Shown here: piece by piece, positions 9,047 to 41,531 of the stretch | How the letters are laid out: each line of letters starts with the position of its first letter | Numbering within the stretch: the first letter of the stretch is position 1 | NCBI GenBank assembly: GCA_012513515.1 | Contig: JAAZCA010000031.1 | Coordinates: 19,905 to 83,904, forward strand | Length of the DNA: 64,000 nt | From: Myxococcales bacterium | Lineage (GTDB): Bacteria > UBA10199 > 2-02-FULL-44-16 > JAAZCA01 | Direction of reading: 5' to 3' | Made by a program: the position numbers and the translations under genes | The notes under the pieces: model-generated | The model's input: only the letters and a program-made list of their open reading frames with translations | What the model was told of the DNA's origin: nothing | The model's database searches: none

Positions 9047-9073
9047 GCAACTAATTTGAAAAATTGACGATAA
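9047..9073 (+). promoter_or_regulatory. Putative alternative-sigma promoter GCAAC-N14-GACGATAA
   Basis: GCAA ctaatttgaaaaatt GACGATAA, 22 nt upstream of ATG 9096; same spacing at four other sites. Confidence 0.6.
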
Positions 9074-9095
9074 CCATACCGGAGGAGTTCGCTAA

Positions 9096-9800
9096 ATGCC
9101 GCCAAAAATCAATATCAAAAGGAGTCTGCTCGGCGGATTGGTCCCCAATGAGTTTCAAACCGACGTGGCCCATATGGTCGATTTCGCTCATAACGGCCTC
9201 CCTTTACAGCTCATCCGAAGTGGAGAGCCGGTCGAGCCGATACATCAAGATCATAAGATAGCGAAACACAACAACTGCAACGGCAAGGAGGAGTGTCTCG
9301 CCGATCACTATTTCGGAAGTTTTTTCGATGTGAAAATCGGAATATCCGAACCGCCCCCCAGAATCGCAGCCGCAATCTTTGAAGATAGGACAACGGCCCT
9401 GAAAACCACCGAAAGATACCCAAAAAGCTACATCGAATCGTTGATGATCTGCCCGAGGCCTGCGGCGTTTAACACCGGCGCACACAGGATCGTGGTAGTC
9501 TTCTGGACCTCAGCTGAAAGATTTGCCGCGGCCTTCGAGGAGGGGGGGAGCCCTCTTCGCCCCAAAGATGAAAACTTCTTCGTTGACGGCCTGACTCCCA
9601 AGGCGGAGGAGATGCTCCTAAACCCTATATTCATAGAAAATCAACTTCTCCCCTCCATCGTCGAGGCGATGACGGGCCAGCAACTTTTCAAGGATGCACA
9701 TAATTTCTTAATAAAAGTAAACAATCCCTCCAAGAATTCAGGCCACACCGGTCACTGGTTTGAAGGGTGCCGCCCTTCTAACTTGATGTATAAATATTAA
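9096..9800 (+). CDS. Hypothetical protein (orphan)
   Basis: 234-aa ORF with strong RBS (GGAGGAG); no recognised family. Confidence 0.7.
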   Translation: MPPKINIKRSLLGGLVPNEFQTDVAHMVDFAHNGLPLQLIRSGEPVEPIHQDHKIAKHNNCNGKEECLADHYFGSFFDVKIGISEPPPRIAAAIFEDRTTALKTTERYPKSYIESLMICPRPAAFNTGAHRIVVVFWTSAERFAAAFEEGGSPLRPKDENFFVDGLTPKAEEMLLNPIFIENQLLPSIVEAMTGQQLFKDAHNFLIKVNNPSKNSGHTGHWFEGCRPSNLMYKY

Positions 9801-9843
9801 AAGACCGTGCTACAGTTTGATAGCTCGATAAAAAGTAACCGCC

Positions 9844-9910
9844 ATGACTGGTGACTGGTAAGCGGTCGGAACCCCGCGGTAGCGGCGGCTTAAATCATGC
9901 GGGAATGACG
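9844..9910. repeat. Intergenic mosaic repeat cassette (GTGACTG heptamers + GCGGTCGGAACCCCGCGGTAGCGGCGGCTTAAATCATGCGGGAATGAC)
   Basis: Near-identical to 31650-31700 and, inverted, to 22184-22240 and 40770-40820. Confidence 0.88.
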
Positions 9911-9931
9911 GCGTAACAAAAACCTGCGCCA

Positions 9932-12589
9932 TTAACGAGGTTTTTTAGGATTCGCGCCCATGATCCTATTCGCCCAAGATTGTGTGCGTTCTATAAAGCG
10001 CCTTTCTACTCCATCAGCAGATACGATTTGAAGAGAACCCACACCTTTGATCTTCATCTTGGATCTTATGATCTTCTCAACGTTATCCCTGCTCATGCCC
10101 CCAGTAAGTGGGATCCTCACCTTGAACTTCCCTGTCGGGGTATCTTCTAAATCACACCAGTCTATCTTCACGCGATCATTTAACAGAGCTTCGAGCACGC
10201 TTTGCATAACTCCCTTATCTGCAAATTCTGTTCTCTCGACCACAACATCCATAAATGTGACTTTGCCCACGTAGGGAGGGGGGGTGCCCCTGTAGGAATC
10301 CTCGAGCGTGGAGAAAAATTCGTCCACCGCCTCCAACTTGCTAGGCTCGTCGATAGGCATCTCGAATTCAAGCAAGGCCTGCTGTGATTCTCCAACCCTT
10401 TCGAATTTTACGGATGAAAAAGAAAGCCCGTAGTCAAACGCCGACAAAAGTATGTTTTTGAGAAGCGATGAGTCGTGACGAAGGAGAAGTCTGGCCGAAA
10501 CTTTTTCGTTACGATCGTAACGCGTAAAAAGTATCGAATTCGCCATTATCCTGCTCTTGACTTCGTTGACAAAATCCTGCCGCCAAGCTCCAGAAGTTTT
10601 AGAAATTTCAGAAGCTTTACGAAAAGCCCCAAGCGTTATAAAGAACTCTTCCTCAGTTTTGAATCCCAATCTGCGATAGAGACGCTCAAACGAAAAAAGG
10701 AAGGTCGGGCTGGCAGTCCCAAACTTCCTTCCCCCCTGTGAATTTATGAGCTCCTCCTTCACCTCGGATGATATCCTAGCCAGCTCAGCCTTGCCATGTC
10801 CGGAAAGGTACTCCTTATTTATCTTTCTGGGATCAAGCGAGAAATTCTTCTCTGCGACGGTTGCAGCATATAACATCATCGCCCTGGCGTAGGGGGTTTT
10901 CACAATATGGATCCTTGTGGGAAATATAGAATGGCCCCTCGTTTGGAAATCGAACCTCTGACCGGATTCGATACGGGACTCAAGTTTTTTGGACGAACCT
11001 TCCAAAAAACCCACATCGGCATAGAGAGCGGAAAATGCGTCCCTCGCAAAGGCGGCGTCAAGCAGGGATGGTTTTCTATCTTGGCTGCCGGTAACGATCT
11101 TCAAAATCTTTCCGTTGGAGTCATCGATGACGAAAAAAGTTCCGGACGAATGAATCCCATCTTTTTTCGCTTTAAACAGGGTTCTGGGAGGGTCTATGTC
11201 CGACGAGGTCGTTAGCTGCACCGTTTCCCCTGTTTTATAAGCGCCATGAGCTGCGGAACCGAACTCGGCATTCATGTGCATGGCCGACGTTCTTACCTGT
11301 ACCTCCAGGAGATATCCGCTGGAATCCTTATAATAGGCGTGTAGGGACTTATACCCGTTTGCCTTTTGTTTAACATAGATGTAGTCGTCGTAATGCTCAG
11401 GTAGATACTCCCAGCCGCGGGCGGTGAAATAAGCTTTGACCTCCTCCATCGCCTCGTAGCACATTTCGTCGCGATCGTCATTTATTATGATCCTAATTCC
11501 GTTGGTATCGCGGTTATTCCCCTTCTTATCACGTCTGACACGGGCACTGACAGTTGTCTTCATGCGATGCTCGATATAGTGACCGATGCCTTTAGCATCC
11601 AAAGCATCCCTGAGCTCCCTTGAAATTTCTTCCAGCCTGGCATTGGACGATCTCCTATCCATGCCGACCTGCTTGCGGAGATGTTCTTCCATTTCCTCGT
11701 AAGAGAATGGCTCCAGATGCCGGAATGCGACGTCCTCGAGGGTTCCTCCATCCTGGCTAAAACCGAAATATTTCAGTATCTGCGATGTGACGAAACGAGA
11801 TCGCTGCATCTTCTCCTCGCTCTCGCGGTCGAGGCCGGAAGAAGGGCGCTGAGATAAAAGCCCTGCGTCGACTGTGTCCTGAGCCGCGAGAAGCATCAAC
11901 TCCTCGTGGCTGTTCGAAATCGCGAATAGAAGGCTCATGAGACGGCCGTACTGATTCTTGTCAGACCAGTCGCAGGTAAAGGATTTTGTCCTCTCGAGCT
12001 GGCTCAGTAATTTTTTAACCTCCGATTTACCATTCCCGGAGATAGAATAATCCTTCTTTCCGGAGATCAGCGCGGCGGCGATCGCGGGAGTGGAGGAGTC
12101 CCAGCTGGCGAGTAAAAACGCACATCGCAAATTTCTTATTTGGCTATCGGTGGAAAGAGTGGAAAGGTTATCAAGCGCACTTCTGACAAGTTTGAGGTCC
12201 TTATGCCCCAGCTTTTCGAGCCGTTCGAGGAGCTTCTTTTTCGGCTCAGAGGTATCATCGGGATCATGGTCAGGAAAACCATAAAGCCCCGCAAAAATCT
12301 CTGAGGACTTCAATGCAGCGCTGGCAGCGGCATCGCCGGAGGAAAAGATCGCAGCCCCGGATCCCGCATCGCCTGCAAAGGCCATCGCGTGAGATGGAGC
12401 AAAGATTGATCCGGCGGAAATGCCATGCGGCGCACCATGAGCGAACCTTTTGCAAAAATTTTTAACCTGGCAAATGGTGAAAACTGGAGCGCTTGAGCTC
12501 CCAGCCTGCCCGGCGAAAGCCACAGGAGCGAAAGAGGCAGGCGTTGCGGCAAAAGGAAAATTAAAAGGCTTAAGCACAGGAAAACGCAT
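9932..12589 (-). CDS. Long RelA/SpoT homologue with intact (p)ppGpp synthetase motifs, degenerate HD hydrolase and N-terminal low-complexity extension
   Basis: HRMKTTVS, RDTNGIRII, DDYI..KANGYKSLH, EVQVRT, AEFGSAAHGAYK. Start placed at ATG 12589 (RBS AGGGG) because the track start at 12808 lies inside a repeat cassette. Confidence 0.85.
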   Translation of the reverse strand: MRFPVLKPFNFPFAATPASFAPVAFAGQAGSSSAPVFTICQVKNFCKRFAHGAPHGISAGSIFAPSHAMAFAGDAGSGAAIFSSGDAAASAALKSSEIFAGLYGFPDHDPDDTSEPKKKLLERLEKLGHKDLKLVRSALDNLSTLSTDSQIRNLRCAFLLASWDSSTPAIAAALISGKKDYSISGNGKSEVKKLLSQLERTKSFTCDWSDKNQYGRLMSLLFAISNSHEELMLLAAQDTVDAGLLSQRPSSGLDRESEEKMQRSRFVTSQILKYFGFSQDGGTLEDVAFRHLEPFSYEEMEEHLRKQVGMDRRSSNARLEEISRELRDALDAKGIGHYIEHRMKTTVSARVRRDKKGNNRDTNGIRIIINDDRDEMCYEAMEEVKAYFTARGWEYLPEHYDDYIYVKQKANGYKSLHAYYKDSSGYLLEVQVRTSAMHMNAEFGSAAHGAYKTGETVQLTTSSDIDPPRTLFKAKKDGIHSSGTFFVIDDSNGKILKIVTGSQDRKPSLLDAAFARDAFSALYADVGFLEGSSKKLESRIESGQRFDFQTRGHSIFPTRIHIVKTPYARAMMLYAATVAEKNFSLDPRKINKEYLSGHGKAELARISSEVKEELINSQGGRKFGTASPTFLFSFERLYRRLGFKTEEEFFITLGAFRKASEISKTSGAWRQDFVNEVKSRIMANSILFTRYDRNEKVSARLLLRHDSSLLKNILLSAFDYGLSFSSVKFERVGESQQALLEFEMPIDEPSKLEAVDEFFSTLEDSYRGTPPPYVGKVTFMDVVVERTEFADKGVMQSVLEALLNDRVKIDWCDLEDTPTGKFKVRIPLTGGMSRDNVEKIIRSKMKIKGVGSLQIVSADGVERRFIERTQSWANRIMGANPKKPR

Positions 12590-12599
12590 AGTCCCCTGC

Positions 12600-12626
12600 T
12601 TCTCGGCTTCCTGCAAAAAAAGTTGC
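12600..12626 (-). promoter_or_regulatory. Putative alternative-sigma promoter GCAAC-N14-GCCGAGAA
   Basis: Minus strand GCAA ctttttttgcaggaa GCCGAGAA, ending 10 nt before ATG 12589. Confidence 0.5.
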
Positions 12627-12775
12627 GTACTTCTTTCGGGGAGGCAAACGATTCGCGCCACTATAAAAAAGATACATATCAGCGACTTAACCGGTTCGGC
12701 CAGTCCATGCAAGCGAAAATACTTAAGTAACCTCCGAAAAATCAGCAAATTCAGAGCGCCTCTAAAAACCATGCG

Positions 12776-13010
12776 CTTGTCATCCCCGAGTGACGGAAAG
12801 GTCGTCATCCCCGAATGACGAGAAGGTTGTCATCCCCGAGTGGTATAATCGGGGATCCCGCAACAGCCGTGAAGTGGGAAAAACAGAAGCTAGAAGCTAG
12901 AAAAACCTCGCCTGTAGAAATCTCGCTTCTCGCTTCCAGATTCCAGCTTCTTGATGTTTTGGTCGATGGTCAATCGTCCATGGTCGAAGTTATTGTTGCC
13001 TCTAGCTTTT
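12776..13010. repeat. Intergenic mosaic repeat cassette with three tandem GTCATCCCCGA units (25-nt period)
   Basis: GTCATCCCCGA x3, hairpin ending TCGGGGATCC, AGAAGCT heptamers; 12885-12961 is an inverted copy of about 22008-22077. Confidence 0.9.
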
Positions 13011-13178
13011 CAGAGGTTCCTTAAAGGATCAAAAGAAACAAAATCACAAACGAACAGCTTATTGCCTTGCCATGACGCGCTGCGTGGAATAGTCTGTGGG
13101 CATTCAAATTCGCTCTTTCATAAAGTTGCCCGCAAAATGTCCATTCTCCTTTGAACCGAATAAAACGAGGGAGGGGTT

Positions 13179-13661
13179 ATGTATTGTGGGGGAAAAGAAT
13201 CGCCAAACGGAGTGCGCCTTACAAACACGCAGGTAAATGCGTTCACCAGATTTTTGAAGATTGGTTGGAATGTCGGTCACGAAGATCAGGGGACCCCTAT
13301 AGATCTCTCGCTTTTCGATTCTTTCCACTCGCTGGATCAATACCGTTACTCCCTTTTCCCAAATCGCATGAAGCCATTTCAGTTCGGATATGATCTGGGC
13401 TATAAAAATTTTCTGGAAACAAATAGACGCGGATTCTTTGACAAGTTCTCCCCGGACTTCAATCTGGATGCCCTGCAACTTAGACAAAAAATTCCATGGC
13501 CGATAGAAATAATTCTACCCAGCGCCAAGATACTCATTGGATTCGATTTCATGAATAAATATCCCAGCGAAAAAAGCCTGACGGCCATGGGGTGGGAGGA
13601 AGGGCAGCTCGACGACAACCTGAGCTCCGGCGTAGCGAAACAGTTTCAAATATCGTTCTGA
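13179..13661 (+). CDS. Hypothetical protein (orphan)
   Basis: 160-aa ORF preceded by a G-rich RBS; ends 5 nt from the convergent TonB receptor stop. Confidence 0.6.
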   Translation: MYCGGKESPNGVRLTNTQVNAFTRFLKIGWNVGHEDQGTPIDLSLFDSFHSLDQYRYSLFPNRMKPFQFGYDLGYKNFLETNRRGFFDKFSPDFNLDALQLRQKIPWPIEIILPSAKILIGFDFMNKYPSEKSLTAMGWEEGQLDDNLSSGVAKQFQISF

Positions 13662-13666
13662 AAATG

Positions 13667-15640
13667 TCAGATGTTGTGGAGCTTCATCCCAAGCCAGACG
13701 CTTCTGCCCGGCTCTGGAAATCCGAACTCGCTCATGTTATTCGCATCGATCACATTTCGCACCGACAGCGAGAGCTCAAGCCACTTGAAGGGGTCGCTCG
13801 TGATCTTCACGTCCCAGCGCTCGCTGGATCGGAGACTGGCCCACACCCCGCTTTCTGGATTAACATAAGGGCGCGGACCGGTGACGATCAGGCTGCTCGA
13901 TACGCTGAATAGATCGAGTGGCTCCCATGCCACGGAAAATCTGCCTTTGTGTTCCGGCCTGTACTCAAGCTGACTTGCAGGATGTGAACTCGAAAGTTTT
14001 CTGGCAAAGAGGTACTGATACCCCATATCTATGTTCAGGTCGCATCCGTCGAATTTGAATTCGATCGCCACCTCCGTCCCGGCTAATCGCGCTCTACTGC
14101 TATTTCGCAACTGGTAGAGATCCGGCGAGACAAGCTCCCTCAATATCATATCGTAAATCTCGCTATCGAACACGCTGATCCTGAAGGTGAGCCATTCTAG
14201 CGGAGTCACAGTCGCATCGAGCGAGAAGTTCCAGCCCTTCTCCGCTCCCAAATTCGGGTTTGGAAGATGCGATCCGAACGCATCAGCGAACCTCTCCTTC
14301 AGCGTTGGAAATCTGGCGCGCCTTGCAACGGAGAGACCGATCATAAAAGCATCGGAGGGTGAAAATTCGACTGCAAAGAGAGGGCTCACGGTCATCTGAT
14401 TTTTAGTCTCTATCAGCGACGGAAAACTCTGTGGAATCTCCGAATCTATCTGAAGGCCGGTCTTTATGCTCCAGATCTCATCGAGCGCCCAGTTGATCTG
14501 TGGAGATATGGTGACGAGCCAGCGTTCATAGCTGATCGAGCCTGCGGCGCCCTCGCTGCTCTCGGTATGCTTCTCTAGCCTGCCTCCAGACCACAGAAGC
14601 AGTTCTATCTTCTTCATCCACGGCGGGCTTATTACGAAAGCTCCCTGCAGTACGCCGCCAGCGGCGATGTCGCTATGGCGGGATGTAAATGAGCTGGGGA
14701 AACCTTGCGAACTGTATGAAGAATCGTCGTAGGATTTCAGAGTATTGTCGAACTTGGAAAGAAAGAGCGTCTCCTTGATCTGCATACGGTCGGAAAAATA
14801 TCTCCCCTCGTGCGAAGCAGAAATCGTGCCCGCACTCCAGGGATCAAAACGCCAGAAACGCGGCCTAGATACCTGCGTATTCGGAGGAACGTAATAGTCC
14901 CCTCTAACGAGGTCGGCTGAAACAAGGAGGGTGTGATTTTGCACGAGCTCTATGTCGAGTTTGCCCCCACCATATCCCATTTGAACTTCACTGCCGATTC
15001 GGTCTCCCCCTCCCTGAGTTGGAGTCGGAGTATAATCCCCGGAGAGCGGAAAGTGGTCCCGGTAATCGAAGCCGCCGTAAAGTACGTACCCGATTTTGCC
15101 TATCGTGTTGCTATGAAGAATCGACGCCCCTACCTTGCTCACCGGCGACCCATCGCCCCTAAACTCAAAATGCGGATTTTTGCTCGGCGATCTCGTGATG
15201 ATATTGACTGCACCGCCGAGTCCGCCCGGGCCATAGCTTATCGAGCTGGCCCCCTTGACGACCTCAATTTCCTCCACCATGAAGGAGGGAAACTTTCCGA
15301 GGTCGAGATCGCCGTTATACGGAATGGCGGATGGAACCCCCTCTATCAGGACGGAGACCTCCTTCTGGTCGAACCCCCTCATGTAAAAAAGATGCTCGCC
15401 CCTAGTCCCGCTAACGACTTCCATCGATGGCAAATCGCCGAGTACGTCGGCAATGGTCTCTGAGCTCCCTTCGTCGATATCGCCTCTGTCAACGCGATCG
15501 ACCATGGTTCCCGCCGATTTTCCCGCTATCCCGGCAGTCACTGAGATGACGCCAAGATCCACCGGCTCCCCGGCGTACAATGCGGAATGGAAAAAGATCA
15601 TGGCAAGGGCCGCCATGGCTGTTCTTCCGGGAATATTCAT
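13667..15640 (-). CDS. TonB-dependent outer-membrane receptor
   Basis: Plug motifs (VISVTAG, MRGFDQKEVSVLIEG, IEVVKGASSISYGPGGLGGAVNIIT), NPNLGAEKG, C-terminal PEPGRSVWLGM. Start set at ATG 15640, where the signal peptide begins. Confidence 0.92.
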   Translation of the reverse strand: MNIPGRTAMAALAMIFFHSALYAGEPVDLGVISVTAGIAGKSAGTMVDRVDRGDIDEGSSETIADVLGDLPSMEVVSGTRGEHLFYMRGFDQKEVSVLIEGVPSAIPYNGDLDLGKFPSFMVEEIEVVKGASSISYGPGGLGGAVNIITRSPSKNPHFEFRGDGSPVSKVGASILHSNTIGKIGYVLYGGFDYRDHFPLSGDYTPTPTQGGGDRIGSEVQMGYGGGKLDIELVQNHTLLVSADLVRGDYYVPPNTQVSRPRFWRFDPWSAGTISASHEGRYFSDRMQIKETLFLSKFDNTLKSYDDSSYSSQGFPSSFTSRHSDIAAGGVLQGAFVISPPWMKKIELLLWSGGRLEKHTESSEGAAGSISYERWLVTISPQINWALDEIWSIKTGLQIDSEIPQSFPSLIETKNQMTVSPLFAVEFSPSDAFMIGLSVARRARFPTLKERFADAFGSHLPNPNLGAEKGWNFSLDATVTPLEWLTFRISVFDSEIYDMILRELVSPDLYQLRNSSRARLAGTEVAIEFKFDGCDLNIDMGYQYLFARKLSSSHPASQLEYRPEHKGRFSVAWEPLDLFSVSSSLIVTGPRPYVNPESGVWASLRSSERWDVKITSDPFKWLELSLSVRNVIDANNMSEFGFPEPGRSVWLGMKLHNI

Positions 15641-15812
15641 AAAGGTGCAATACCCAATACTTCCAAAGTCCGCCGCGGTCAACCTGCCTAAAACGAACTT
15701 TTCAACTGTCCGCCCTTTTTTACATAGCAGGAGCATCTAATCGCTCTATTGCATTTATAGCGCAAGTTTGACAGGATTCCTCGCGAAACCGGAAGAACCA
15801 AGGAGGACTTAA

Positions 15813-16220
15813 ATGGACGACCATAGGAAAATCTATCTCTCTGAAAAGGACATGGAGAGGCTTAGAAACATAGTCGGAGAGCGGCAGCAGAGCAAGGAGC
15901 TTCAGCTCCTCGCCGACGAGCTGGACCACGCCATAGTACTTCCTCAGGAAGAAATACCGCCGAACGTGGTTACTATGAACTCCAAGGTCCTCTTCGAAGA
16001 CGTCGACACCAAGAAGACCTCCGAAATAACCGTCGTCTATCCGCAGCACGCTGACGCAGCAAATCGAAAAATATCCATACTGGCACCGATAGGAGCTGCG
16101 CTCATAGGCCTCTCCGTTGGCGATACCATAGAGTGGCCCCTTCCGGGCGGAAAGAAAAAGACTCTACGAATACTGGAGGTGCTATATCAGCCGGAGGCGG
16201 CAGGAAGACGGGACCTATAA
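15813..16220 (+). CDS. rnk: Regulator of nucleoside diphosphate kinase (GreA/GreB family)
   Basis: VVTMNSKV, ISILAPIGAALIGLSVGDTIEWPLPGG. Confidence 0.9.
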   Translation: MDDHRKIYLSEKDMERLRNIVGERQQSKELQLLADELDHAIVLPQEEIPPNVVTMNSKVLFEDVDTKKTSEITVVYPQHADAANRKISILAPIGAALIGLSVGDTIEWPLPGGKKKTLRILEVLYQPEAAGRRDL

Positions 16221-16235
16221 AGGAAGCTCAGAAAA

Positions 16236-17741
16236 ATGTCCATGGAACAATTGTTAGCACTGGCAGCGGTTTTAATCTTCGTAAGCGTGGTATCAAGTAA
16301 GATTTCCGACAAGTTTGCCATTCCGGTTCTGCTGATATTTCTCGCCGTGGGGATGCTCGCCGGTTCCGAGGGAATAGGCGGCATATTTTTCAACGACACC
16401 AGAATAGCCAAATCCATAGGCGTAATCGCGCTGATCTTCATAATATTTTCCGGAGGTTTCGACACGGACTGGAAGGAGACCAAGCCGGTGCTCTGGCATG
16501 GGGTTCTGCTTTCGACAGTCGGCGTCTTCATAACCGCTGTGATCACCGGATTTTTCGCCATGTATGCCCTTGGCTTTTCGCTTCTCGAAGGGATGTTGCT
16601 GGGCTCGATAGTCTCATCGACGGATGCCGCTGCGGTTTTCAGCATCCTGCGCTCAAGAAACATCAGCCTGAAGCCGCCGCTCAAAGCCCTTCTTGAATTT
16701 GAATCCGGAAGCAACGACCCCATGGCCGTTTTTCTCACTCTCGGAATAATAGGAATAATTACCTCGTCGGCCGAGATCAGCGCATCGACTCTGATACTAA
16801 AATTCCTTCTGGATATGGGCGCGGGCGCTCTCATCGGTTACCTGATGGCAAGATTCAGTATCTTTTTCATAAACTTTCTGAAGCTGGAATACGAAGGGTT
16901 GTATCCGGTAATAATGATATCGCTTGTATTGCTTACCTACTCCGCCGCCGTCATCATGAAGGGGAATGGCTTTCTTGCGGTCTACATAGCCGGCCTAATG
17001 CTCGGTAAATCCGACATCCCAAACAAGAAGATGATAATGCGATTTCACGACGGAATCGCATGGCTGATGCAGATTGTCATGTTCGTAACTCTCGGCCTTT
17101 TGGTTTTCCCCTCGAAACTGATACCTCTGGCAGGAGTCGGAATGGCTCTGACTATGGTTCTCATGTTCGTGGCAAGGCCTGTCAGCGTATTTCTTTTACT
17201 TATTCCATTCAAACTCAGCATGCGTATGAAGACAATGGTAGCATGGACCGGTCTCAGGGGATCTGTTCCCATTATACTCGCAACATTTCCTCTGATGGCC
17301 AATATCAGCCGTTCGTCGATGATGTTCAATATCGTCTTTTTTGTAGTGATCGCATCCGTGCTTATACAGGGGATGTCGATACCATTCGTGTCTAAAATTC
17401 TAAAGGTGAACGCCCCCTTTCCAAGGCGCACCGACCACCCGATAGAATTTGAAAGAAAGGGCAAGATCGATGCGGATCTTACTGACATCATCGTCCCTTA
17501 TGAATCCGAGGCGATAGGGAAAAAAATAGGCGAGCTTCCAATTCCAAAAGAACTCCTGATAGTTCTCATCTCCAGAAACGGAAAATACGTCATCCCTTCA
17601 GGAGATACCACTTTTGAGGCAGGTGACGTCCTCCTCGTTCTGGCAAGCGATCATGATTTTGCCGCGCTCAGTCGCGAGATAAGCAGGATAAAAAAGGTTG
17701 AAAAAACCCGAGATATCCAGCAGCCGTTTACATGCGTTTGA
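16236..17741 (+). CDS. K+/H+ antiporter (CvrA/NhaP2 type, CPA1) with C-terminal TrkA-C domain
   Basis: SSTDAAAVF, LEFESGSNDPMAV, WTGLRGSVPIILA, VIPSGDTTFEAGD. Confidence 0.92.
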   Translation: MSMEQLLALAAVLIFVSVVSSKISDKFAIPVLLIFLAVGMLAGSEGIGGIFFNDTRIAKSIGVIALIFIIFSGGFDTDWKETKPVLWHGVLLSTVGVFITAVITGFFAMYALGFSLLEGMLLGSIVSSTDAAAVFSILRSRNISLKPPLKALLEFESGSNDPMAVFLTLGIIGIITSSAEISASTLILKFLLDMGAGALIGYLMARFSIFFINFLKLEYEGLYPVIMISLVLLTYSAAVIMKGNGFLAVYIAGLMLGKSDIPNKKMIMRFHDGIAWLMQIVMFVTLGLLVFPSKLIPLAGVGMALTMVLMFVARPVSVFLLLIPFKLSMRMKTMVAWTGLRGSVPIILATFPLMANISRSSMMFNIVFFVVIASVLIQGMSIPFVSKILKVNAPFPRRTDHPIEFERKGKIDADLTDIIVPYESEAIGKKIGELPIPKELLIVLISRNGKYVIPSGDTTFEAGDVLLVLASDHDFAALSREISRIKKVEKTRDIQQPFTCV

Positions 17742-22005: not shown

Positions 22006-22266
22006 TTAAACATCAAGAAGCTAGAATCTAGAAGTGAGAGGCGATTTCTACAGGCGAGGTTTTTCTAGCTTCTAGCCCCTCGCTTCTGGCCTCTGTTTTT
22101 CTCAGTCACGGTTGTTACGGGATCCCCGATTAAACCGCTCGGGGATGACAACCTTTTCGCCATTCGGGGATGACGACCATACTGTCATTCCCGCATGATT
22201 TAAGCCGCCGCTACCGCGGGGTTCCGACCGCTCACCAGTTACGAGTCACCAGTCACAAGTCACGGC
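22006..22266. repeat. Intergenic mosaic repeat cassette (longest copy)
   Basis: Contains all modules (CTAGAAG heptamers, GGATCCCCGA..TCGGGGATGAC, GTCATTCCCGCATGATTTAAGCCGCCGCTACCGCGGGG, GTCAC heptamers); between convergent genes. Confidence 0.9.
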
Positions 22267-26776: not shown

Positions 26777-26803
26777 GCAACATTTTTTGGACTCCGACGA
26801 TAA
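26777..26803 (+). promoter_or_regulatory. Putative alternative-sigma promoter GCAAC-N14-GACGATAA
   Basis: GCAA cattttttggactcc GACGATAA, 41 nt upstream of the S8 protease start. Confidence 0.6.
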
Positions 26804-26844: not shown

Positions 26845-28986
26845 GTGAAAGTTCTGAAGCTCTTTCTCTGCGTATTGTGCTCCATCCAAGTCGCGCTGGC
26901 ATCGGCATCTGCTCTGGCCAATCCAAAAATAGATTCCTTTATAAAGACCTCCAAACTCCGCAAGAGCGCGGTTTCATACAAGGCGCTTTCCATGAAAGCC
27001 TCTGTAAAATCTGAAGATTCCGAAATGGTGGAAGTCTTTATAAAGAGCTCCGATCCGGAGTCGACAAAGTCAAAAATTAAAAGGGCCCAGGGGTGGGTAC
27101 ACACCTCAACCGATTCGGTGATCACGGCTTCTATCGCCAGCGACTCGCTGGAGTCGATCGCCGAATCGGAGGAGGTACAGTTCATTGAAGGCGGCAAGCC
27201 AATCGGAAAGAGCAATGACAAGGCAGCAATTGAAATCAACGCTGGAGAGGTCAGCAAAAGTCTGAATCTTCCCGAAGGCTATACCGGAGAGGGAGTGATC
27301 ATCGGAATCATCGACACCGGGATCGACTATTCCCACGCCGATTTTAAAGACGCCGAAGGGCGCAGCCGCATCATATCGATCTGGAATCAGATGCACTCCG
27401 GCGGAAAATCTCCCAGCGAAATCGAAAACAGCTTTGGAACGGAATGTGATTCCGATTCGATAGCTGACGGAAGCTGTCCCCTCGCGGATTCCGATGGACA
27501 TGGAACCCATGTCGCCGCCACCGCGGCAGGAAGCGACGAGACCTACAGGGGAATTGCTCCCGACGCCAACATAATAGTTGTCAGCTACGACTCCAGCGTT
27601 TCGATGGACACGGGATATGCCAAGCCGATCTTTTCAACAAAAATCTGCCAGGCCGCTTATTACATCTTCAAAAAAGCCGACTCGTTAGGCATGCCGGCCG
27701 TAATCAACTTGAGCCTTGGGACCCACATCGGGTCGCACGACGGGTCATCACTTTTCGAATCATGCCTCAGCGAATTGCTGAAAGACTCCGCGGGTCGCGC
27801 AATAGTTGCGGCCGCCGGAAATGAATACACCGAAGGCAAAAACGGATTCACAGGAATACACGTCGGAGGCGAGATAAGCGAAACGACTGCCTCGAACTTC
27901 GTCATAAGAAGAATAACATCCGACAGGATATATTACATAGACCTATGGGGATCGAAGGGAAGCGATCTCTCAGTTGGCCTCGCATTTCACAATGGACGCG
28001 CAGGAGGAACGCCTGAAAAATTTTCGGGCCTCGTTGAAATGGGGGCGAGTTCAAGCGGATCGTTTCTCGACGGAAAGATAAATTATGTTATCAATTTCAC
28101 CGAAGAATCGTCAGCCTTAAATGGCAAGCCGCATGCCGGCATAAGGATAATGGTCGATCCATCGCTAAACGATATTTCCCGGCACAGCTTCGATCTCGTA
28201 GTCTCAGGAAACGGGTCTTACGATGCATGGCTCTTTCCGGACAAGCCGTCAGAGACGATACAATTTACAGATTTTCAGGGCGGCGCCAACACATGGAATT
28301 ACGTGCCGGGGGACAGCATGAAGAGCATAGCGATGCCCGCCACATCCCCTGAAGTTATCGCCGTAGCCGGATACACAACGCGCAACAGCTGGAACAGAGG
28401 CTCCGGATGCTGCGAAGTAGCCTTCAATCTCGGAGCCATACTCGATTTCTCGAGTTCAGGCCCCAGCGCGGATCCTTCAGCTACAGGCCAGAAGCCAGAA
28501 ATAGCAGCGCCGGGCGGAATGATAGCCTCCGCGCTATCCTCGACGGCGACTCACAATAGCCTGATGATCATGCCCGATGGCAAACATGCTCTCCAGGCCG
28601 GCACCAGCATGGCGGCCCCATTTGTGACGGGGACAATCGCTCTGATGTTCTCAGCCGATTCCAACTACACCCACGATGACGTAAAAAAATACATAGTCGA
28701 AAGCGCCTACGTCGATGAAGACGTTGGCGAAGCTCCCAACAACAGATGGGGTTTTGGAAAACTCGACGTGCTGGCCGCACTCGAAACAGCGATCAACGGA
28801 GGTTCATCCGGCCGCTTCGACGGGAATCAAAGCCTCAGCGAACCTGAAGGCGCAGGCGCTTCCGGAGGAAGCCTTGGTTGCACGCTCTCCTCGGAGGTGA
28901 GCGGATCCGACAAAAAGATAGTCTTGGCAGGAATGTTCTTCATCGCAGCGGCCCTGATAGCGGCGAGAAGGCGTTCGATGAGATAG
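26845..28986 (+). CDS. S8 (subtilisin-like) serine protease with C-terminal Cys-TM-basic sorting tail (MYXO-CTERM-like)
   Basis: GIIDTG, DGHGTHVA, AAAGNE, GTSMAAP; tail GGSLGC...IVLAGMFFIAAALIAARRR. Confidence 0.92.
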   Translation: MKVLKLFLCVLCSIQVALASASALANPKIDSFIKTSKLRKSAVSYKALSMKASVKSEDSEMVEVFIKSSDPESTKSKIKRAQGWVHTSTDSVITASIASDSLESIAESEEVQFIEGGKPIGKSNDKAAIEINAGEVSKSLNLPEGYTGEGVIIGIIDTGIDYSHADFKDAEGRSRIISIWNQMHSGGKSPSEIENSFGTECDSDSIADGSCPLADSDGHGTHVAATAAGSDETYRGIAPDANIIVVSYDSSVSMDTGYAKPIFSTKICQAAYYIFKKADSLGMPAVINLSLGTHIGSHDGSSLFESCLSELLKDSAGRAIVAAAGNEYTEGKNGFTGIHVGGEISETTASNFVIRRITSDRIYYIDLWGSKGSDLSVGLAFHNGRAGGTPEKFSGLVEMGASSSGSFLDGKINYVINFTEESSALNGKPHAGIRIMVDPSLNDISRHSFDLVVSGNGSYDAWLFPDKPSETIQFTDFQGGANTWNYVPGDSMKSIAMPATSPEVIAVAGYTTRNSWNRGSGCCEVAFNLGAILDFSSSGPSADPSATGQKPEIAAPGGMIASALSSTATHNSLMIMPDGKHALQAGTSMAAPFVTGTIALMFSADSNYTHDDVKKYIVESAYVDEDVGEAPNNRWGFGKLDVLAALETAINGGSSGRFDGNQSLSEPEGAGASGGSLGCTLSSEVSGSDKKIVLAGMFFIAAALIAARRRSMR

Positions 28987-31617: not shown

Positions 31618-31752
31618 GCCGTGACTGGTGACTGATGACTCGTAACTGGTGAGCGGTCGGAACCCCGCGGTAGCGGCGGCTTAAATCATGCGGGAATGAC
31701 ATTCATAGTGTCATCCCCGAGTGCTTTAATCGGGAATCCCGTAACAGCCGGC
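31618..31752. repeat. Intergenic mosaic repeat cassette between hpnH and hpnG-like
   Basis: GTGACTG heptamers, GCGGTCGGAACCCCGCGG module, GTCATCCCCGAGTGCTTTAATCGGGAATCC hairpin. Confidence 0.88.
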
Positions 31753-33671: not shown

Positions 33672-33765
33672 TGTCATCCCCCGAATGTTTTTATCCTCCG
33701 CCTTTGGCGGGGCAGGCGGGAATCCACCAACTGCCGTTCTGGACAAATGGGAATCCATCGCCTAA
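33672..33765. repeat. Degenerate repeat cassette
   Basis: GTCATCCCCCGAATG...GGCGGGAATCC remnants. Confidence 0.55.
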
Positions 33766-33810
33766 AATGCCCCGTCTTTAAACAGGTCCAAATCCAACAG
33801 GGGGAATGAT

Positions 33811-36360: not shown

Positions 36361-36485
36361 ATTGTTAGAACGGGATTCCCGCCTAAAGCATGCGGGAATG
36401 ACTGCGCACTGAAAGGTTGTCATCCTCGAGTAGTGAGAAGGTTGTCATCCCCGAATGATTTTATCGGGGATCCAGCAACAACCGC
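36361..36485. repeat. Intergenic mosaic repeat cassette
   Basis: GGATTCCCGCCTAAAGCATGCGGGAATGAC plus tandem GTCATCC(T/C)CGA units and a hairpin ending TCGGGGATCC. Confidence 0.88.
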
Positions 36486-36508
36486 AACATGCGAAAGGTA
36501 AAAATATC

Positions 36509-37582
36509 ATGCAAAAATTCAACAAGACCCTTCTTGAAGAGATCCTGTCGCTCCCCACAATGAGTTTCCATGAAACCGCAGTGGCGACATTCGTAAGAAT
36601 CTATTCTGCAGCGATAGGCCTTAAAGTCGATGAAGATCGCTTCGGCAATATACTTGTCAAATACAAGGGCGGTTCGGGAAGGCCGGTTACATTCACAGCG
36701 CACATGGACCATCCCGGATTCGAAATCGTATCCTCATCAGGAAAGAAGGGGACCGCCGCCCTGTGGGGGCGCGTCGACGTAAAGTTCTTTTCAGGATCAA
36801 GCGTAGCGATCCATACGGAGAGAGCTAAGATCAAGGGGAAGATTGGAAAGCTCATCAAATCCAAAAAATATTTTGGCAAGCCATGCTTCGAAATCTCATC
36901 GGATGAAGAATTTTCGGAAGGCGATTTCGGGCATTACGATCTCCCCGGTTTCAAACAGAAGAAAGATATCCTCCATGCCAGAGCGGCGGACAACCTCGCC
37001 AGCGTAGCAGCGATATTGGAACTCATGACGAGGCTGGTCGCCAAAAAATCCAAGTCGAATGTCTGCGGCCTCTTTACGCGTGCGGAGGAAGCCGGCTTCA
37101 TCGGCGCCTTCGGTGCCATCGAGGCCGGAACAGTTTCCGCTAAGGATCCCATAATAGTCATGGAATGCAGCTCCGCGCCCGGAGGCAAGGTCGATATCGG
37201 CGGAGGGCCTGTAATCAGGTCCGGCGATGCCCAGAGTTCCTACGACCCCGCGGTTGAGGCGTGGCTGATCGACTGTGCAGCCTCGGCAAAATCCAGATCG
37301 AAGGGATTCAAAAGCCAACGGGCGCTTCTAAAAGGCGGCCGCTGCGAAGCATGCGTATATGTTGCGGAAGGCTTCCCTGTCGGCGGGCTGGCGCTGGCAC
37401 TTGGCAACTATCACAACCACGGCCCGAAGGGATACGCTGCGGAATACATCTCGGCATGCGACTATGAAAACATGATTTTACTCATGGAAGAGGTCGCCGC
37501 ATCCCCGATGCCCAAGAATATCTTCAAGAAAAAACTCGCCCCGCTATGGAAAAATTACAGGGATCTGAAAAAGAAATTATAA
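36509..37582 (+). CDS. M42/M28-type co-catalytic metallopeptidase
   Basis: TAHMDH, ARAADN, FTRAEEAG, MECSS, GNYHN. Start moved to ATG 36509 because the track start 36455 is inside a repeat. Confidence 0.85.
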   Translation: MQKFNKTLLEEILSLPTMSFHETAVATFVRIYSAAIGLKVDEDRFGNILVKYKGGSGRPVTFTAHMDHPGFEIVSSSGKKGTAALWGRVDVKFFSGSSVAIHTERAKIKGKIGKLIKSKKYFGKPCFEISSDEEFSEGDFGHYDLPGFKQKKDILHARAADNLASVAAILELMTRLVAKKSKSNVCGLFTRAEEAGFIGAFGAIEAGTVSAKDPIIVMECSSAPGGKVDIGGGPVIRSGDAQSSYDPAVEAWLIDCAASAKSRSKGFKSQRALLKGGRCEACVYVAEGFPVGGLALALGNYHNHGPKGYAAEYISACDYENMILLMEEVAASPMPKNIFKKKLAPLWKNYRDLKKKL

Positions 37583-37631
37583 ACATTTTAAAATTATTTA
37601 ATACTGCATCTTGATTCTTAATCTTCATCTT
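37518..37631 (+). repeat. 114-bp direct repeat, copy 1 (last 65 bp of the peptidase gene plus downstream DNA)
   Basis: Identical to 38920-39033 by manual alignment. Confidence 0.92.
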
Positions 37632-37840
37632 TATCTTTATCTTAATCCTGATTCTGATCTTAATAACGATATTTTCGAATATAAGTTAGTTTTACAAATG
37701 CTGATCAAAGATCAGCGATCAGGATTCGCCCCCTCCCGCAACAACCGTGACTGGTGACTCGTATTAAAATTTGCTCGACCATCCGGCAGTATTGGTAAGC
37801 ACATTTACAATCGTCTAACTATCGTCTATAATTAGACTAT

Positions 37841-38875
37841 ATGTTACAGCCCAAGTATAGCGTTTCTGATAAATTACTTAATAATATCAAGACTATAGCA
37901 GTGATATGCTCAGAGCTTAATAATCAGGCATTTGCCAAAACAATACTATCTAGTTTTGAGGCAAAGGCTAATTCCCTCTCTGCATATTCATCCACGAGCA
38001 TTGAAGGAAATCCAATCCCCCTTACGGATGTCAAAAGACTTATTAAATCAAAACCGGAAAAGATCAGAGATACCGAGCGGGAGGTGCTGAACTATAACAG
38101 CGCCTTTGAATACCTTAAAAATGAAATTGCTGGCGGTCAAATATCCATAAGTGAAAAACTGATCTGCACTATCCAAAAGAAAATTACCGAAGGGCTGATC
38201 GAAAAGCACAGATGTGGAAAATTCAGAACTGAACCTGTTTTCGTAAACGACCCCAGAACGGGAAAGCCGGCATATCTCCCTCCCGACCATCAAGATGTTG
38301 GCAAGCTGATGAAAGAATTATTAGATTTTGTAAAGCAAAAGCGTGGCAAGATCGATGCGCTCATTCTGGCCGGAATTTTTCACAAGGAATTTGTGATCAT
38401 TCATCCGTTTGTAGATGGTAATGGTAGAACTGCAAGACTAATCACAAAAGCACTTCTTGCAGATATGGGGTTGAACACATTCAATCTCTTCAGCTTCGAA
38501 AATTATTACAACAGAAATGTCACCAAATATTTTGTAAAGGTTGGAGCGCTTGGTAACTTTTACGATATTGGAAACGACCTTGATCTTACAGAATGGCTGG
38601 AATATTTTACCGATGGAATAATAGATGAGTTGTTGCGCGTTAAAAAGGAGCTCTCTGCCGAAACTATTTCACCTAAAACCAAACTATTTCCCCATCACAA
38701 CAAGATTCTCGATTTTATAGATCGCAACGGATTCATAACGGATAGGGACTATTCAAAGCTGACCAAGCGTGCAAAGGCAACCAGAGCTTTGGATTTTAAA
38801 AAGTTGATGGAACTTGGACTTATTAAACGCTTTGGCAAAGGACGAGCGATTCATTACAAGAAAAAGACAAGATGA
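37841..38875 (+). CDS. Fic family AMP transferase (class II-like) with C-terminal winged helix
   Basis: HPFVDGNGRTAR catalytic motif; SSTSIEGN inhibitory-type motif; C-terminal TRALDFKKLMELGLIKRFGKGR; visibly AT-rich. Confidence 0.93.
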   Translation: MLQPKYSVSDKLLNNIKTIAVICSELNNQAFAKTILSSFEAKANSLSAYSSTSIEGNPIPLTDVKRLIKSKPEKIRDTEREVLNYNSAFEYLKNEIAGGQISISEKLICTIQKKITEGLIEKHRCGKFRTEPVFVNDPRTGKPAYLPPDHQDVGKLMKELLDFVKQKRGKIDALILAGIFHKEFVIIHPFVDGNGRTARLITKALLADMGLNTFNLFSFENYYNRNVTKYFVKVGALGNFYDIGNDLDLTEWLEYFTDGIIDELLRVKKELSAETISPKTKLFPHHNKILDFIDRNGFITDRDYSKLTKRAKATRALDFKKLMELGLIKRFGKGRAIHYKKKTR

Positions 38876-38919
38876 AGCCGGGCGTTTTTTTGCCTGTGTC
38901 GAGATTGCGTGGCCCCCAC

Positions 38920-39033
38920 ATATCTTCAAGAAAAAACTCGCCCCGCTATGGAAAAATTACAGGGATCTGAAAAAGAAATTATAAACATTTTAAAATTATT
39001 TAATACTGCATCTTGATTCTTAATCTTCATCTT
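38920..39033 (+). repeat. 114-bp direct repeat, copy 2
   Basis: Identical to 37518-37631; followed by degenerate NATCTT hexamers. Confidence 0.92.
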
Positions 39034-39227
39034 CGTCTTTATCTTAATCTTGATTCTTAATCTTAATCTTGATTTTGTTGTACTTAAATATGATGGTGAG
39101 ATTCCTTCGTTTTTAAGCTTTGATTATAATGAGGAATGAGTTTGGTAAAAAAATGTTATAAATAGATAAAGTGTTTGCCCCGCGCCCGTGCGGCTGATAT
39201 AGCGCTGCGAGACAGTCAGGAGGATTT

Positions 39228-40601
39228 ATGGTCAGAAAAGTCGTCCCATATAAGATCAAGATCGTAGAGCCGATAGCGCTGCTATCCCGCGAGGATCGCG
39301 AGGCAAAGATTTCCGAGGCAGGGCTCAACATTTTTCGCCTCAGATCTAAGCACGTCTACATAGACCTTCTCACCGATTCGGGAACCGGCGCGCTCAGTCA
39401 GGAGCAGCTTTCACAGATGATGATAGGGGATGAATCGTATGCTGGATCCGAGTCCTTCTTCAGGCTGGAGAAGGCGATCCGCGACATCATGCATCTTCCT
39501 TACGTGATCCCGGTCCATCAGGGGCGTGCGGCAGAACAGGTTCTTGATTTCACTCTTGTAAGGGAAGGGCAGGTCGTCCCCGGCAACACGCATTTCGACA
39601 CGACCAAGGCGCATATCGAATTCCGCGGAGGGCGAACTATAGATTGCACTATCGCGGAGGGGCGCGATTCGACGGTGATGTATCCGTTCAAGGGGAATAT
39701 AGATATGAATCTCCTCGAGCATGCGTACAAAAAGTATGGCCGTGAAAAGATATCGTATGTTCTCATAACGGTCACGTGCAATTCCGGCGGGGGGCAGCCG
39801 GTCTCGATGGAAAATATCAGGCAGGTTTCGAGCTTCTGCGCCGAGAAAGGGCTGCGCCTCTTCTTTGACGCCGCGCGTTTCGCGGAAAACGCCTATTTCA
39901 TACAGCAGCGCGAACCGGGCTACGCCGACAAATCTATAAAGGGAATCGTGCGCGAGATGTTTTCATATGTCGAAGGATGTACGATGTCGGCGAAGAAGGA
40001 CGGCCTCGTTCCGATCGGCGGTTTCCTCGCCCTGCGCGATGAGAAACTCTATGAAGAGATGAAGCCCACGGACATCCTCTTCGAGGGTTTCTACACCTAC
40101 GGCGGAATGAGCGGCATGAACATGGATGCGATGGCGCAGGGGCTTTGCGAGGTCGTAGAGGAAAGTTATCTAGCGCACCGCATAGGTCAGACATCATATC
40201 TCGGCGAAGAGCTTACTAAGAGGGACGTTCCGATAGTGAGGCCTGTCGGAGGTCACGCTGTATTTATCGATGGGAGAAGATTTTTCCCGAACGTTCCAGA
40301 AAGCGAATTTCCCGCGCAGCTTCTCGTTGTGGAGCTATATCGCGAAGGCGGAGTGAGGGCGGTAGAGGTCGGCTCATGCCTCGCTGGTCGCGATCCCGAT
40401 AGCGGAGATAACATCCGTCCAGCCCTTGATCTATGCAGACTTACGATCCCGAGGCGCGTTTACACCGAGGAGCATTTCGATTACGTAGCCGACGTCGTTG
40501 ACGAGGTTTTCAAGAAACAGCGAAGCAGAAAGCGCGGCCTCGGATTCGATGTGGAGACCAAGGGAATTCGCCACTTCACGTCGACGTTTAAGGAGTTGTA
40601 A
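39228..40601 (+). CDS. tnaA: Tryptophanase
   Basis: IDLLTDSGT, GDESYAGS, HQGRAAE, SAKKD (PLP Lys); RAVEVGS and RHFT match tryptophanase rather than TPL. Confidence 0.82.
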   Translation: MVRKVVPYKIKIVEPIALLSREDREAKISEAGLNIFRLRSKHVYIDLLTDSGTGALSQEQLSQMMIGDESYAGSESFFRLEKAIRDIMHLPYVIPVHQGRAAEQVLDFTLVREGQVVPGNTHFDTTKAHIEFRGGRTIDCTIAEGRDSTVMYPFKGNIDMNLLEHAYKKYGREKISYVLITVTCNSGGGQPVSMENIRQVSSFCAEKGLRLFFDAARFAENAYFIQQREPGYADKSIKGIVREMFSYVEGCTMSAKKDGLVPIGGFLALRDEKLYEEMKPTDILFEGFYTYGGMSGMNMDAMAQGLCEVVEESYLAHRIGQTSYLGEELTKRDVPIVRPVGGHAVFIDGRRFFPNVPESEFPAQLLVVELYREGGVRAVEVGSCLAGRDPDSGDNIRPALDLCRLTIPRRVYTEEHFDYVADVVDEVFKKQRSRKRGLGFDVETKGIRHFTSTFKEL

Positions 40602-40660
40602 ATCAACGTATCTTATAATTACTCAGTGATGATTGCGAATATAATCTTTTTAAAATCCTA

Positions 40661-40823
40661 AATTGTCGTCGCCGCGACGGGAAAATCCCGTTCCAACCGT
40701 TCACCACTCACCAGTCACGGTCGTTGCTGGATCCCCGATTACACCATTCGGGGATGACACTATGAATGTCATTCCCGCGGCATTAAGCCGCCGCTACCGC
40801 GGGGTTCCAACCGCTCACCAGTC
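40661..40823. repeat. Intergenic mosaic repeat cassette
   Basis: GGATCCCCGATTACACCATTCGGGGATGAC, GTCATTCCCGC, GCCGCCGCTACCGCGGGGTTCC, CACCAGT heptamers. Confidence 0.88.
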
Positions 40824-40939
40824 ACCAGTCGCGAGTTACGGCAGTCCCCACTTGCGCCTTACATGGTATAGTTATAATGATAGCGCAGCATGCTATTATC
40901 CGTTGGCGCATGAGATGCACCTCAACCGGGGAGGATTCA

Positions 40940-41332
40940 ATGTCAATGACCGACAAAGAGCTCATAAAAATCGCGACGGAGGCGAGAAAAAAGGCGTATG
41001 CGCCGTACTCAAAATTCAAGGTGGGAGCGGCACTTCTTTGTAGCGATGGCCGGGTTTTTACCGGCTGCAACGTCGAAAATGCCACGTATGGCGCCACCTG
41101 CTGCGCCGAGCGCACCGCCATATTCAAGGCCGTCTCGGAAGGGGCGCGCGAATTCCTTAAAATAGCGGTGGTGACAGGGAGTTCGCATATCGATTCGCCG
41201 TGCGGGATATGCCGGCAGGTCCTTTTTGAATTCACCCCCGACCTCAGGGTCATAATGGCAAATACTAAAGGAAAATCAGCAGGTTACACCATTAAAAAGC
41301 TCCTCCCCGCCGCATTTTCACTGAAAAAATAG
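40940..41332 (+). CDS. cdd: Cytidine deaminase (homotetrameric type)
   Basis: AYAPYSKFKVGAA, GCNVENA, CAERTAI, PCGICRQ. Confidence 0.96.
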   Translation: MSMTDKELIKIATEARKKAYAPYSKFKVGAALLCSDGRVFTGCNVENATYGATCCAERTAIFKAVSEGAREFLKIAVVTGSSHIDSPCGICRQVLFEFTPDLRVIMANTKGKSAGYTIKKLLPAAFSLKK

Positions 41333-41428
41333 CCCCCTCCTCGGGGGAGACAAGCCGTTTGTGCCCCCGGAGCATACCGGGGTGAAATACGCCGCCAAAA
41401 ATTTTCTCAAAAATTGGCATTTTTTTTA

Positions 41429-41531
41429 GCAACTAAACCACAGAGGGATCGATAACACTGCGGTATAGCGCTTTTGGATAAAGCGCTGAAGGGAAAGAAA
41501 GTTCGCAACAAATAATTTTTTCGGACGATAA
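41429..41531 (+). promoter_or_regulatory. Two tandem putative alternative-sigma promoters
   Basis: GCAA ctaaaccacagaggg ATCGATAA (41429-41455) and GCAA caaataattttttcg GACGATAA (41505-41531). Confidence 0.62.

Follow-up and report, generated by a model that had tools for sequence, protein, structure and literature searches.

The DNA analysed here is a 64-kb stretch (the window) of contig JAAZCA010000031.1, from the assembly GCA_012513515.1 labelled Myxococcales bacterium. It carries five copies of a two-block motif in front of genes that are otherwise unrelated. We searched the window for exact matches to GCAAC-N16-CGA(T/G)AA and obtained five (9047 +, 12626 -, 26777 +, 41429 + and 41505 +), which are all the copies, with identical spacing and upstream of start codons, that an earlier note on this DNA had reported. 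The copies of this putative promoter motif, the genes behind them and one associated hairpin are as follows.

9047..9073, + strand: motif GCAACTAATTTGAAAAATTGACGATAA, exact match, 22 nt 5' of the ATG of a 234-aa orphan gene (9096-9800)
9932-12589, - strand: RelA/SpoT-domain gene, 885 aa, with a RelA_SpoT Pfam domain
12600..12626, - strand: motif GCAACTTTTTTTGCAGGAAGCCGAGAA, exact match, 10 nt 5' of the ATG at 12589 of the RelA/SpoT-domain gene
26777..26803, + strand: motif GCAACATTTTTTGGACTCCGACGATAA, exact match, 41 nt 5' of the GTG of the S8 protease gene
26845-28986, + strand: S8 protease gene (Peptidase_S8), with a signal peptide and a C-terminal tail made of GC, a hydrophobic segment and RRR
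41429..41455, + strand: P1, upstream promoter copy of the orphan operon, GCAACTAAACCACAGAGGGATCGATAA, exact match
41465..41487, + strand: hairpin AGCGCTTT-TGGAT-AAAGCGCT between P1 and P2, read from the sequence and predicted by folding
41505..41531, + strand: P2, downstream promoter copy, GCAACAAATAATTTTTTCGGACGATAA, exact match, 71 nt 5' of the ATG at 41603
41603..48344, + strand: three-gene operon under P1 and P2, with intergene gaps of 37 and 57 nt
41603-42958, + strand: operon gene 1, 451-aa orphan, no Pfam, NCBIfam or PDB match
42996-45674, + strand: operon gene 2, 892-aa orphan, no Pfam, NCBIfam or PDB match
45732-48344, + strand: operon gene 3, 870-aa BNR/Asp-box lipoprotein

Across 100 dinucleotide shuffles of the window, the pattern occurred 0.08 times on average and at most once, and none of the shuffles reached five matches. 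A single match with one mismatch was present, at 6317 (+), and allowing up to two mismatches gave 40 matches against 36.3 expected. Since looser matching adds background only, the motif is sharply bounded. The motif definition is post hoc. As an unbiased test, we counted all dyads of the form 5-mer-N10-20-5-mer in the intergenic DNA of the window and compared them with 30 shuffles. The dyad GCAAC-N16-CGATA had four intergenic copies, the top dyad of each shuffle also reached three to four, and the commonest dyads in the window were palindromes resembling repetitive extragenic palindromes (REP-like). Copy number alone therefore fails a look-elsewhere correction. Because the raw count is insufficient, we took the significance of the motif from its position, its orientation and, above all, its conservation in other genomes.

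As regards position, every copy faces a start codon located 10-147 nt downstream. Random scatter over coding and non-coding DNA, which the earlier note had held to speak against a regulon, was not found: all five copies are intergenic and gene-directed, and the intergenic share of the window is 13.7%. The sequence around the copies is unrelated from one to the next, which rules out a repeat or a mobile element as the origin of the motif. The motif is asymmetric and always directed towards the gene, with a fixed 16-nt gap of free sequence. The distance to the start codon is 10 nt at the RelA-like gene, and 10 nt (L191), 14 nt (L197), 16 nt (L139 and L161) and 17 nt (L128) at loci of relatives. 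Start codons located 10-20 nt downstream at many sites leave no room for another promoter, and therefore the motif must be the core promoter itself, which implies leaders that are short or nearly absent.

These properties also bear on the reading of the motif as the binding site of an activator or repressor. Any conserved bipartite motif 5' of genes could be such a site, and the region at 41385-41602 described below is conserved beyond the motif, so that additional regulators may act there. However, the motif is asymmetric and strictly gene-oriented, its spacing is fixed while the spacer sequence is free, the start codon is too close at many sites for a separate promoter, and both halves match known sigma recognition elements. 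A regulator site is thus a very unlikely explanation, and we consider the motif, with high confidence, to be a promoter-class element.

Conservation in other genomes carries most of the argument. In the window and in seven relatives (protein identities of 48-62%), the S8 protease gene and dsbA-serS are arranged divergently. At the syntenic promoter, the exact motif was present in five of these relatives, and the two others carry GCAAC-N16-CGATAC and GCAAC-N16-CGATAT. We aligned ten sequences of this promoter, including two further orthologous promoters retrieved by the collection scan presented below. Within the promoter block, no position was invariant except those of GCAAC, of a T four bases after it and of G-N-CGATA. 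Outside the block, two single columns were invariant as well, and all other positions, spacer included, had diverged.

Similar observations were made for the other promoters. The ortholog contig L107, whose RelA-like protein is 65% identical, retains the motif sites of both the RelA-like gene and the 234-aa orphan gene. Upstream of the orphan gene, the window and L107 share two conserved blocks with diverged DNA between them: one is the sigma70-like promoter of the divergent DUF2400 gene, and the other is a 29-nt block at the 9047 site which is identical in both, with flanks diverged on both sides. In the relative L109, the tandem copies P1 and P2 are both present although operon protein 1 is only 52% identical. 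GCAAC and CGATAA of P1 are intact there with a changed spacer, P2 is kept with two spacer changes, and the hairpin between them is kept as a 7-bp stem despite a 1-nt deletion. Overall, all four promoter regions of the window are conserved in other genomes.

The leader of the orphan operon showed further conservation. The non-coding region of ~215 nt that comprises P1, the hairpin, P2 and the 70-nt leader (41385-41602 in the window, 1200-1414 in L109) is ~93% identical between the two, and the coding DNA next to it is 73-82% identical. As judged from this comparison, selection appears to act there on something beyond the two promoters. No T-run is found 3' of the hairpin, which therefore probably forms a stem-loop at the 5' end of the P1 transcript. 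The conserved leader (41300-41700) had no Rfam match, and its folding was unremarkable (z-scores of -1.2 and -0.8).

The readings of the motif as a variant housekeeping sigma70 promoter, or as a chance or low-complexity pattern, were weighed against the same data. The motif can be written as GCAACA-N16-GATAAT next to TTGACA-N17-TATAAT, the -10 reads GATAAT in many relatives, and the raw dyad count fails a look-elsewhere correction. However, the bases that never vary, G and C in GCAAC and the C and G that precede ATAA, are not sigma70 contacts. The base just 3' of CGATAA in the window is C, G, G, C or A, so that the sigma70 -7 position is never T. In addition, neighbouring genes carry TTGACA/TATAAT-like promoters distinct from the motif: a Fic-domain gene (37841-38875, +) has a near-perfect sigma70 promoter, TTTACA-N17-TATAAT, and no motif, and the DUF2400 gene has TTGTTT-N15-TAGTAT, kept in L107 as a block of its own. 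Chance can account neither for conservation in about ten genomes nor for the lineage-restricted intergenic matches. We therefore regard this pair of explanations as highly improbable.

The genomes in question belong to an uncultured lineage. The source contig was found near-unchanged in many anaerobic-digester metagenomes and metagenome-assembled genomes (MAGs), including GCA_002069625.1 and GCA_029546995.1, and the source species itself was absent from a collection of 185,579 species genomes. The closest relatives by seryl-tRNA synthetase (SerRS) are MAGs with 70-77% identity, labelled Deltaproteobacteria, Myxococcales, Pseudobdellovibrionaceae or plain "bacterium", and the next matches (66% or less) come from Verrucomicrobiota, Planctomycetes and Spirochaetes. 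Because the taxon labels of the MAGs are inconsistent, the lineage is poorly placed. The motif lineage includes "bacterium ADurb.Bin270" and MAGs labelled Deltaproteobacteria, Myxococcales or Bdellovibrio, some motif-bearing MAGs being labelled Bdellovibrio or Bdellovibrionota. Searches of the species genomes with a 473-aa orphan and with the RelA-like protein gave no relatives, and relatives of the M17 peptidase were at most 45% identical and not syntenic. We found no mention of the motif or of ADurb.Bin270 in the literature.

We evaluated the occurrence of the motif across this lineage with a position weight matrix (PWM) built from 12 sites. In 80 unrelated control loci (1.45 Mb), two exact matches were found, as chance predicts, and the top PWM score was 16.6 or lower, compared to 19-35 for the lineage sites. 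A scan of the species-genome collection was run with the narrower pattern GCAACAAAT-N10-G(A/C)CGATAA, for which ~140 chance matches were expected overall from the information content of the pattern and the size of the collection, and at least 120 were found. Among the 120 matches listed, 23 were assigned to the lineage by taxon label, shared genome accession and partly promoter context, which makes the assignment somewhat circular. Four of these 23 lie in the same genomes as SerRS relatives, and two genomes have three matches each among those listed. Still among the matches listed, 20 of the 23 from the lineage were outside long open reading frames (ORFs) compared to 18 of 91 from other taxa (Fisher p = 3e-9), where matches fell mostly in coding DNA, for example in one conserved Chitinophagaceae gene.

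Rescanning the lineage loci with the PWM returned seven extra sites that the search pattern could not reach, compared to three in 650 kb of other loci. In L143 two of them form a divergent back-to-back pair, and in L198 three fall within 8 kb. Over ~45 sites, the spacing showed no length variation. Five sites were counted in ~84 kb, approximately one per 17 kb, which implies a large regulon. Judged on the sequences compared, the motif is a genuine promoter signal, kept across an uncultured lineage.

Two of these loci deserve description. In L143 (3450-3554), two copies on opposite strands have their GCAAC ends 51 nt apart (3476 - and 3528 +) and are placed to drive divergent genes encoding 399-aa and 512-aa proteins with no Pfam domain. 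In L198 (3263-6118), four copies within 3 kb show the -35 variants GCAAC, ACAAC and GAAAC with the same -10, and precede genes for Cys-rich DUF4215 and thrombospondin-repeat secreted proteins and for outer-membrane beta-barrel-like proteins. Because these -35 variants share AAC, they suggest that AAC is the essential part of the element.

Gene content was examined downstream of the motif in the window and in relatives, and 13 of the 24 genes had no Pfam domain. The window regulon consists of the 234-aa orphan (no match in Pfam and NCBIfam searches), the 885-aa synthetase-domain protein, the S8 protease, and the operon of two orphans and a BNR lipoprotein. In relatives, the motif precedes genes for proteins with no Pfam domain, for TPR and pentapeptide-repeat proteins, for a HAMP-GAF-GGDEF cyclase and a ComF-like protein, for Cys-rich DUF4215 and thrombospondin-repeat surface proteins, and for an outer-membrane beta-barrel. 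This agrees with the orphan, surface and effector-like content proposed in the earlier note, with orphans, surface proteases, repeat proteins and signalling enzymes all found downstream. The role in prey or host interaction that the note also suggested is speculative. Because the Fic gene has a sigma70-type promoter, not every effector-like gene in the window belongs to the regulon. In L139 (3461-4275, -), the gene downstream of the motif encodes a 266-aa protein with a kinase-type glycine loop (GHGHFGRVF) and no Pfam match, which may be a divergent kinase-like effector.

The motif's sequence, conservation, position and gene content are thus established, and from them we infer the identity of the sigma factor, the transcription start sites and the co-expression of the genes. 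One alternative sigma factor probably reads the motif. The -35 GCAAC with its T/A tract, the 27-nt geometry and the -10 G(C/A)CGATAA would together form the core promoter of one dedicated alternative factor of the sigma70 family. RNA polymerase with this factor would start a few nt 3' of CGATAA and produce mRNAs with short leaders or almost none. Its products would include a surface-anchored S8 protease, an atypical (p)ppGpp-synthetase-domain protein and many lineage-specific proteins with no known domains.

The -10 element points to the sigma28 (FliA) family. The consensus of enterobacterial sigma28 promoters is TAAAGTTT-N11-GCCGATAA, 27 nt in total, and the motif has the same overall length. 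The octamers in the window are GACGATAA (three copies), GCCGAGAA and ATCGATAA, and GACGATAA is one base off the sigma28 box. Relatives mostly carry tGCCGATAA, in which GCCGATAA is identical at 8 of 8 positions to the enterobacterial box, so that the likeness of the right half to a sigma28 -10, noted earlier, is stronger than claimed. The G two bases 5' of CGATA is invariant in the ten orthologous promoters, and a -10 of 8 nt is more typical of sigma28 than of extracytoplasmic function (ECF) factors. The 15-nt spacing likened to that of sigma28 also held, as GCAA, 15 nt and the octamer were constant in ~45 sites. Further likenesses to the late flagellar promoters read by FliA, SigD and WhiG are the T-rich stretch after the -35 and an apparently stringent recognition with few near-misses. 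We give an even chance to the factor being a sigma28-family protein with changed -35 specificity. Such a factor would have kept its -10 reading (region 2/3) and moved its -35 reading (region 4.2) from TAAA to GCAAC, and it would act as a broad programme regulator, like FliA in the attack phase of Bdellovibrio.

Bdellovibrio bacteriovorus provides a precedent for this sigma28-derived reading. There, a FliA-type site, TTAAG-N16-CCGATA, was described in 92 of 140 attack-phase promoters, which cover proteases, surface proteins and many uncharacterised genes (PMC3627812), and FliA is essential (PMC5430801). The motif shares with these promoters a sigma28-type -10 used as a programme-wide signal, a high site density, and downstream genes for proteases, cell-surface proteins and many uncharacterised proteins. 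In contrast, its -35 has another sequence and is shifted by 1 nt, and the motif lineage is distant, uncultured, comes from anaerobic digesters and groundwater, and is known here from sequence alone.

Several results weigh against a sigma28 origin, among them the inconsistent taxon labels given above. The -35 has only the central AA in common with TAAA(G), and it lacks the sigma28 -35 element; GCAAC itself was invariant in the ten orthologous promoters, in agreement with the left half having been described as GCAA(C) and not TAAA. To our knowledge, sigma28 promoters share TAAA across groups as far apart as Enterobacteria, Bacillus and Chlamydia. We saw no canonical TAAA-N15-GCCGATAA site in ~400 kb of lineage DNA, where [CA]CGATA[AT] occurred 309 times, with GCAAC at -35 in 38 cases and a convincing intergenic TAAA in none. 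No flagellar or chemotaxis gene was present among the 24 downstream genes, a small sample, which is a difference from late flagellar promoters, and tblastn with a flagellin probe gave no match in the lineage loci. Finally, the ~400 kb of lineage DNA yielded no gene for a sigma factor of any type. Pfam searches of nearly all window ORFs returned none, nor did the 10-kb flanks of the window; tblastn with FliA and RpoE probes found no sigma gene in the lineage loci, and a small sigma hidden Markov model built from the sigma genes of the control loci had no match in lineage DNA. A 204-aa helix-turn-helix protein encoded just outside the window was considered as a sigma factor and rejected, since it is an ArsR/MarR-type regulator. 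The alternative-sigma core promoter proposed earlier is thus supported by two-block conservation at fixed spacing, and no sigma gene that would show whether the factor is sigma28- or ECF-like was found in the DNA searched. Because the defining TAAA is missing at -35, we describe the motif as a hybrid variant and not as a sigma28 promoter.

The -35 fits ECF factors better than sigma28, and a group 4 ECF promoter with an unusually large regulon is the main alternative. Such a regulon would resemble the effector regulons that an ECF factor controls through one rigid box, for example the hrp box read by HrpL. ECF factors are usually autoregulated. Their promoters typically have AAC at -35, a group-specific -10 (CGTA, CGAC), spacers of 14-17 bp and a T-tract close to the -35, as in tgaAACntttt (PMC5758882). 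The motif has A/T at positions 6-8 and T at position 9, for example GCAACTTTTTTT and GCAACATTTTTT; AAC does not vary in the S8 set and leads into a T/A-rich tract whose last base is the invariant T, and AAC-N16-CGA fits the ECF scheme. The ACAAC, GAAAC and GCAAC variants of L198, with one -10, and the lack of flagellar targets are also in favour of this alternative. Compared with the B. subtilis promoters of sigmaW, X, M and V (PMC5758882), the likeness extends to AAC at -35, the T-tract, a -10 starting with CG 16 nt after AAC and very stringent recognition. By contrast, the -10 is longer here and equals the sigma28 box, which under an ECF factor would be a coincidence, and the implied regulon is larger, the site density being high for an ECF factor. 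None of the ~45 sites lies upstream of a sigma/anti-sigma operon, which is weak evidence given the small fraction of the genomes sampled. We hold the ECF alternative to be possible, albeit on the doubtful side.

The motif also bears on gene starts. The 12626 (-) copy sits within the longest mechanical ORF (958 aa) of the RelA-like gene yet 5' of the ATG at 12589, and the gene call in L107 begins at the equivalent ATG. An insertion of ~300 nt 5' of the gene produces the spurious 958-aa extension. The starts in the existing calls, which give 958 or 817 aa, are probably wrong, and the transcript would be near-leaderless. The protein has ~245 N-terminal residues of unknown type followed by the (p)ppGpp synthetase domain, with no HD hydrolase, TGS or ACT domain, and the region after the synthetase domain has weak matches to designed six-bladed beta-propellers. 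Only one ortholog (65% identical) was found among 5.8 billion proteins. For operon gene 1, two observations back the ATG at 41603: P0012 is 452 aa long, and in L109 a stop codon interrupts the frame upstream.

Two S8 proteases are encoded in the window (26845-28986 and 48994-51375), and the motif precedes only the first. Both proteins end with a Gly/Cys motif, a hydrophobic helix and an RRR or RRMKK tail, presumably a C-terminal sorting signal of the MYXO-CTERM or GlyGly-CTERM type; no NCBIfam model matched these tails. The same Gly/Cys-hydrophobic-basic tail is present in motif-driven surface proteins of L133 and L198.

The remaining features of the window are the following.

6317..6343, + strand: possible sixth site GCAACTTTTAAAAATATCTGACGAAAA, one mismatch (CGAAAA), within the 5' end of the M17 aminopeptidase ORF
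2385, 4660-4687, 9901, 12779-12838, 22141-22193 and 31692-31719: REP-like clusters
33673, 36394-36453, 40750-40777, 51407-51438, 53726-53778 and 59291: REP-like clusters, continued

The 6317 site lies 25 nt 5' of an in-frame ATG (6369), and its PWM score of 22.3 exceeds that of two accepted sites. The site might serve as an internal promoter from which an M17 aminopeptidase with a shortened N-terminus is made, or have no function. The REP-like palindromic elements are intergenic, with cores GGG(G/A)ATGAC and GTCAT(C/T)CCC (23 cores in 12 clusters, ~1 expected), and were also observed in the relatives L031 and L109. Two paralogous genes for beta-eliminating lyases of the tryptophanase or tyrosine phenol-lyase type are present (39228-40601, +, and 61757-63139, -), the second adjoining an L-PSP endoribonuclease gene and peptidase and oligopeptide-transporter genes just outside the window. 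Together these lyase, peptidase and transporter genes fit a peptide- and amino-acid-fermenting lifestyle. The known RNA families in the window are limited to two tRNAs.

Almost nothing is known of regulation in uncultured lineages, and here a rigid box that can be recovered from sequence identifies a regulon in organisms never brought into culture. Any MAG of the lineage can be searched for the box, which flags the orphan genes that would be switched on together and corrects gene starts, the RelA-like gene being 885 aa and not 958 or 817 aa long. The motif is a natural hybrid, with a sigma28-type -10 and an ECF-type -35: either region 4.2 of a FliA relative acquired a new target, or convergence brought an ECF factor to the sigma28 -10. 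Each possibility is relevant to the evolution of promoter specificity and to the way in which alternative sigma factors avoid cross-talk. The HrpL hrp box of Pseudomonas syringae, GGAACC-N16-CCACNNA, is a comparable case in that one alternative sigma factor reads a rigid bipartite box in front of unrelated, fast-evolving and mostly unannotatable genes, and the box can be used to discover genes; its -10 differs, and no secretion system or signal is linked to the motif genes here. If the targets are secreted effectors, the motif becomes a discovery tool, as the hrp box is for Pseudomonas effectors. A more far-reaching and rather unlikely reading is that, in a deep lineage near Bdellovibrionota, a sigma28-family factor with an unchanged -10 reading and a new -35 specificity, having lost any tie to flagella, serves as the master switch for a large set of secreted, surface and orphan "effector-like" proteins. 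This would hint at a predatory or host-associated life stage. If it is true, the interaction genes could be listed directly from MAGs.

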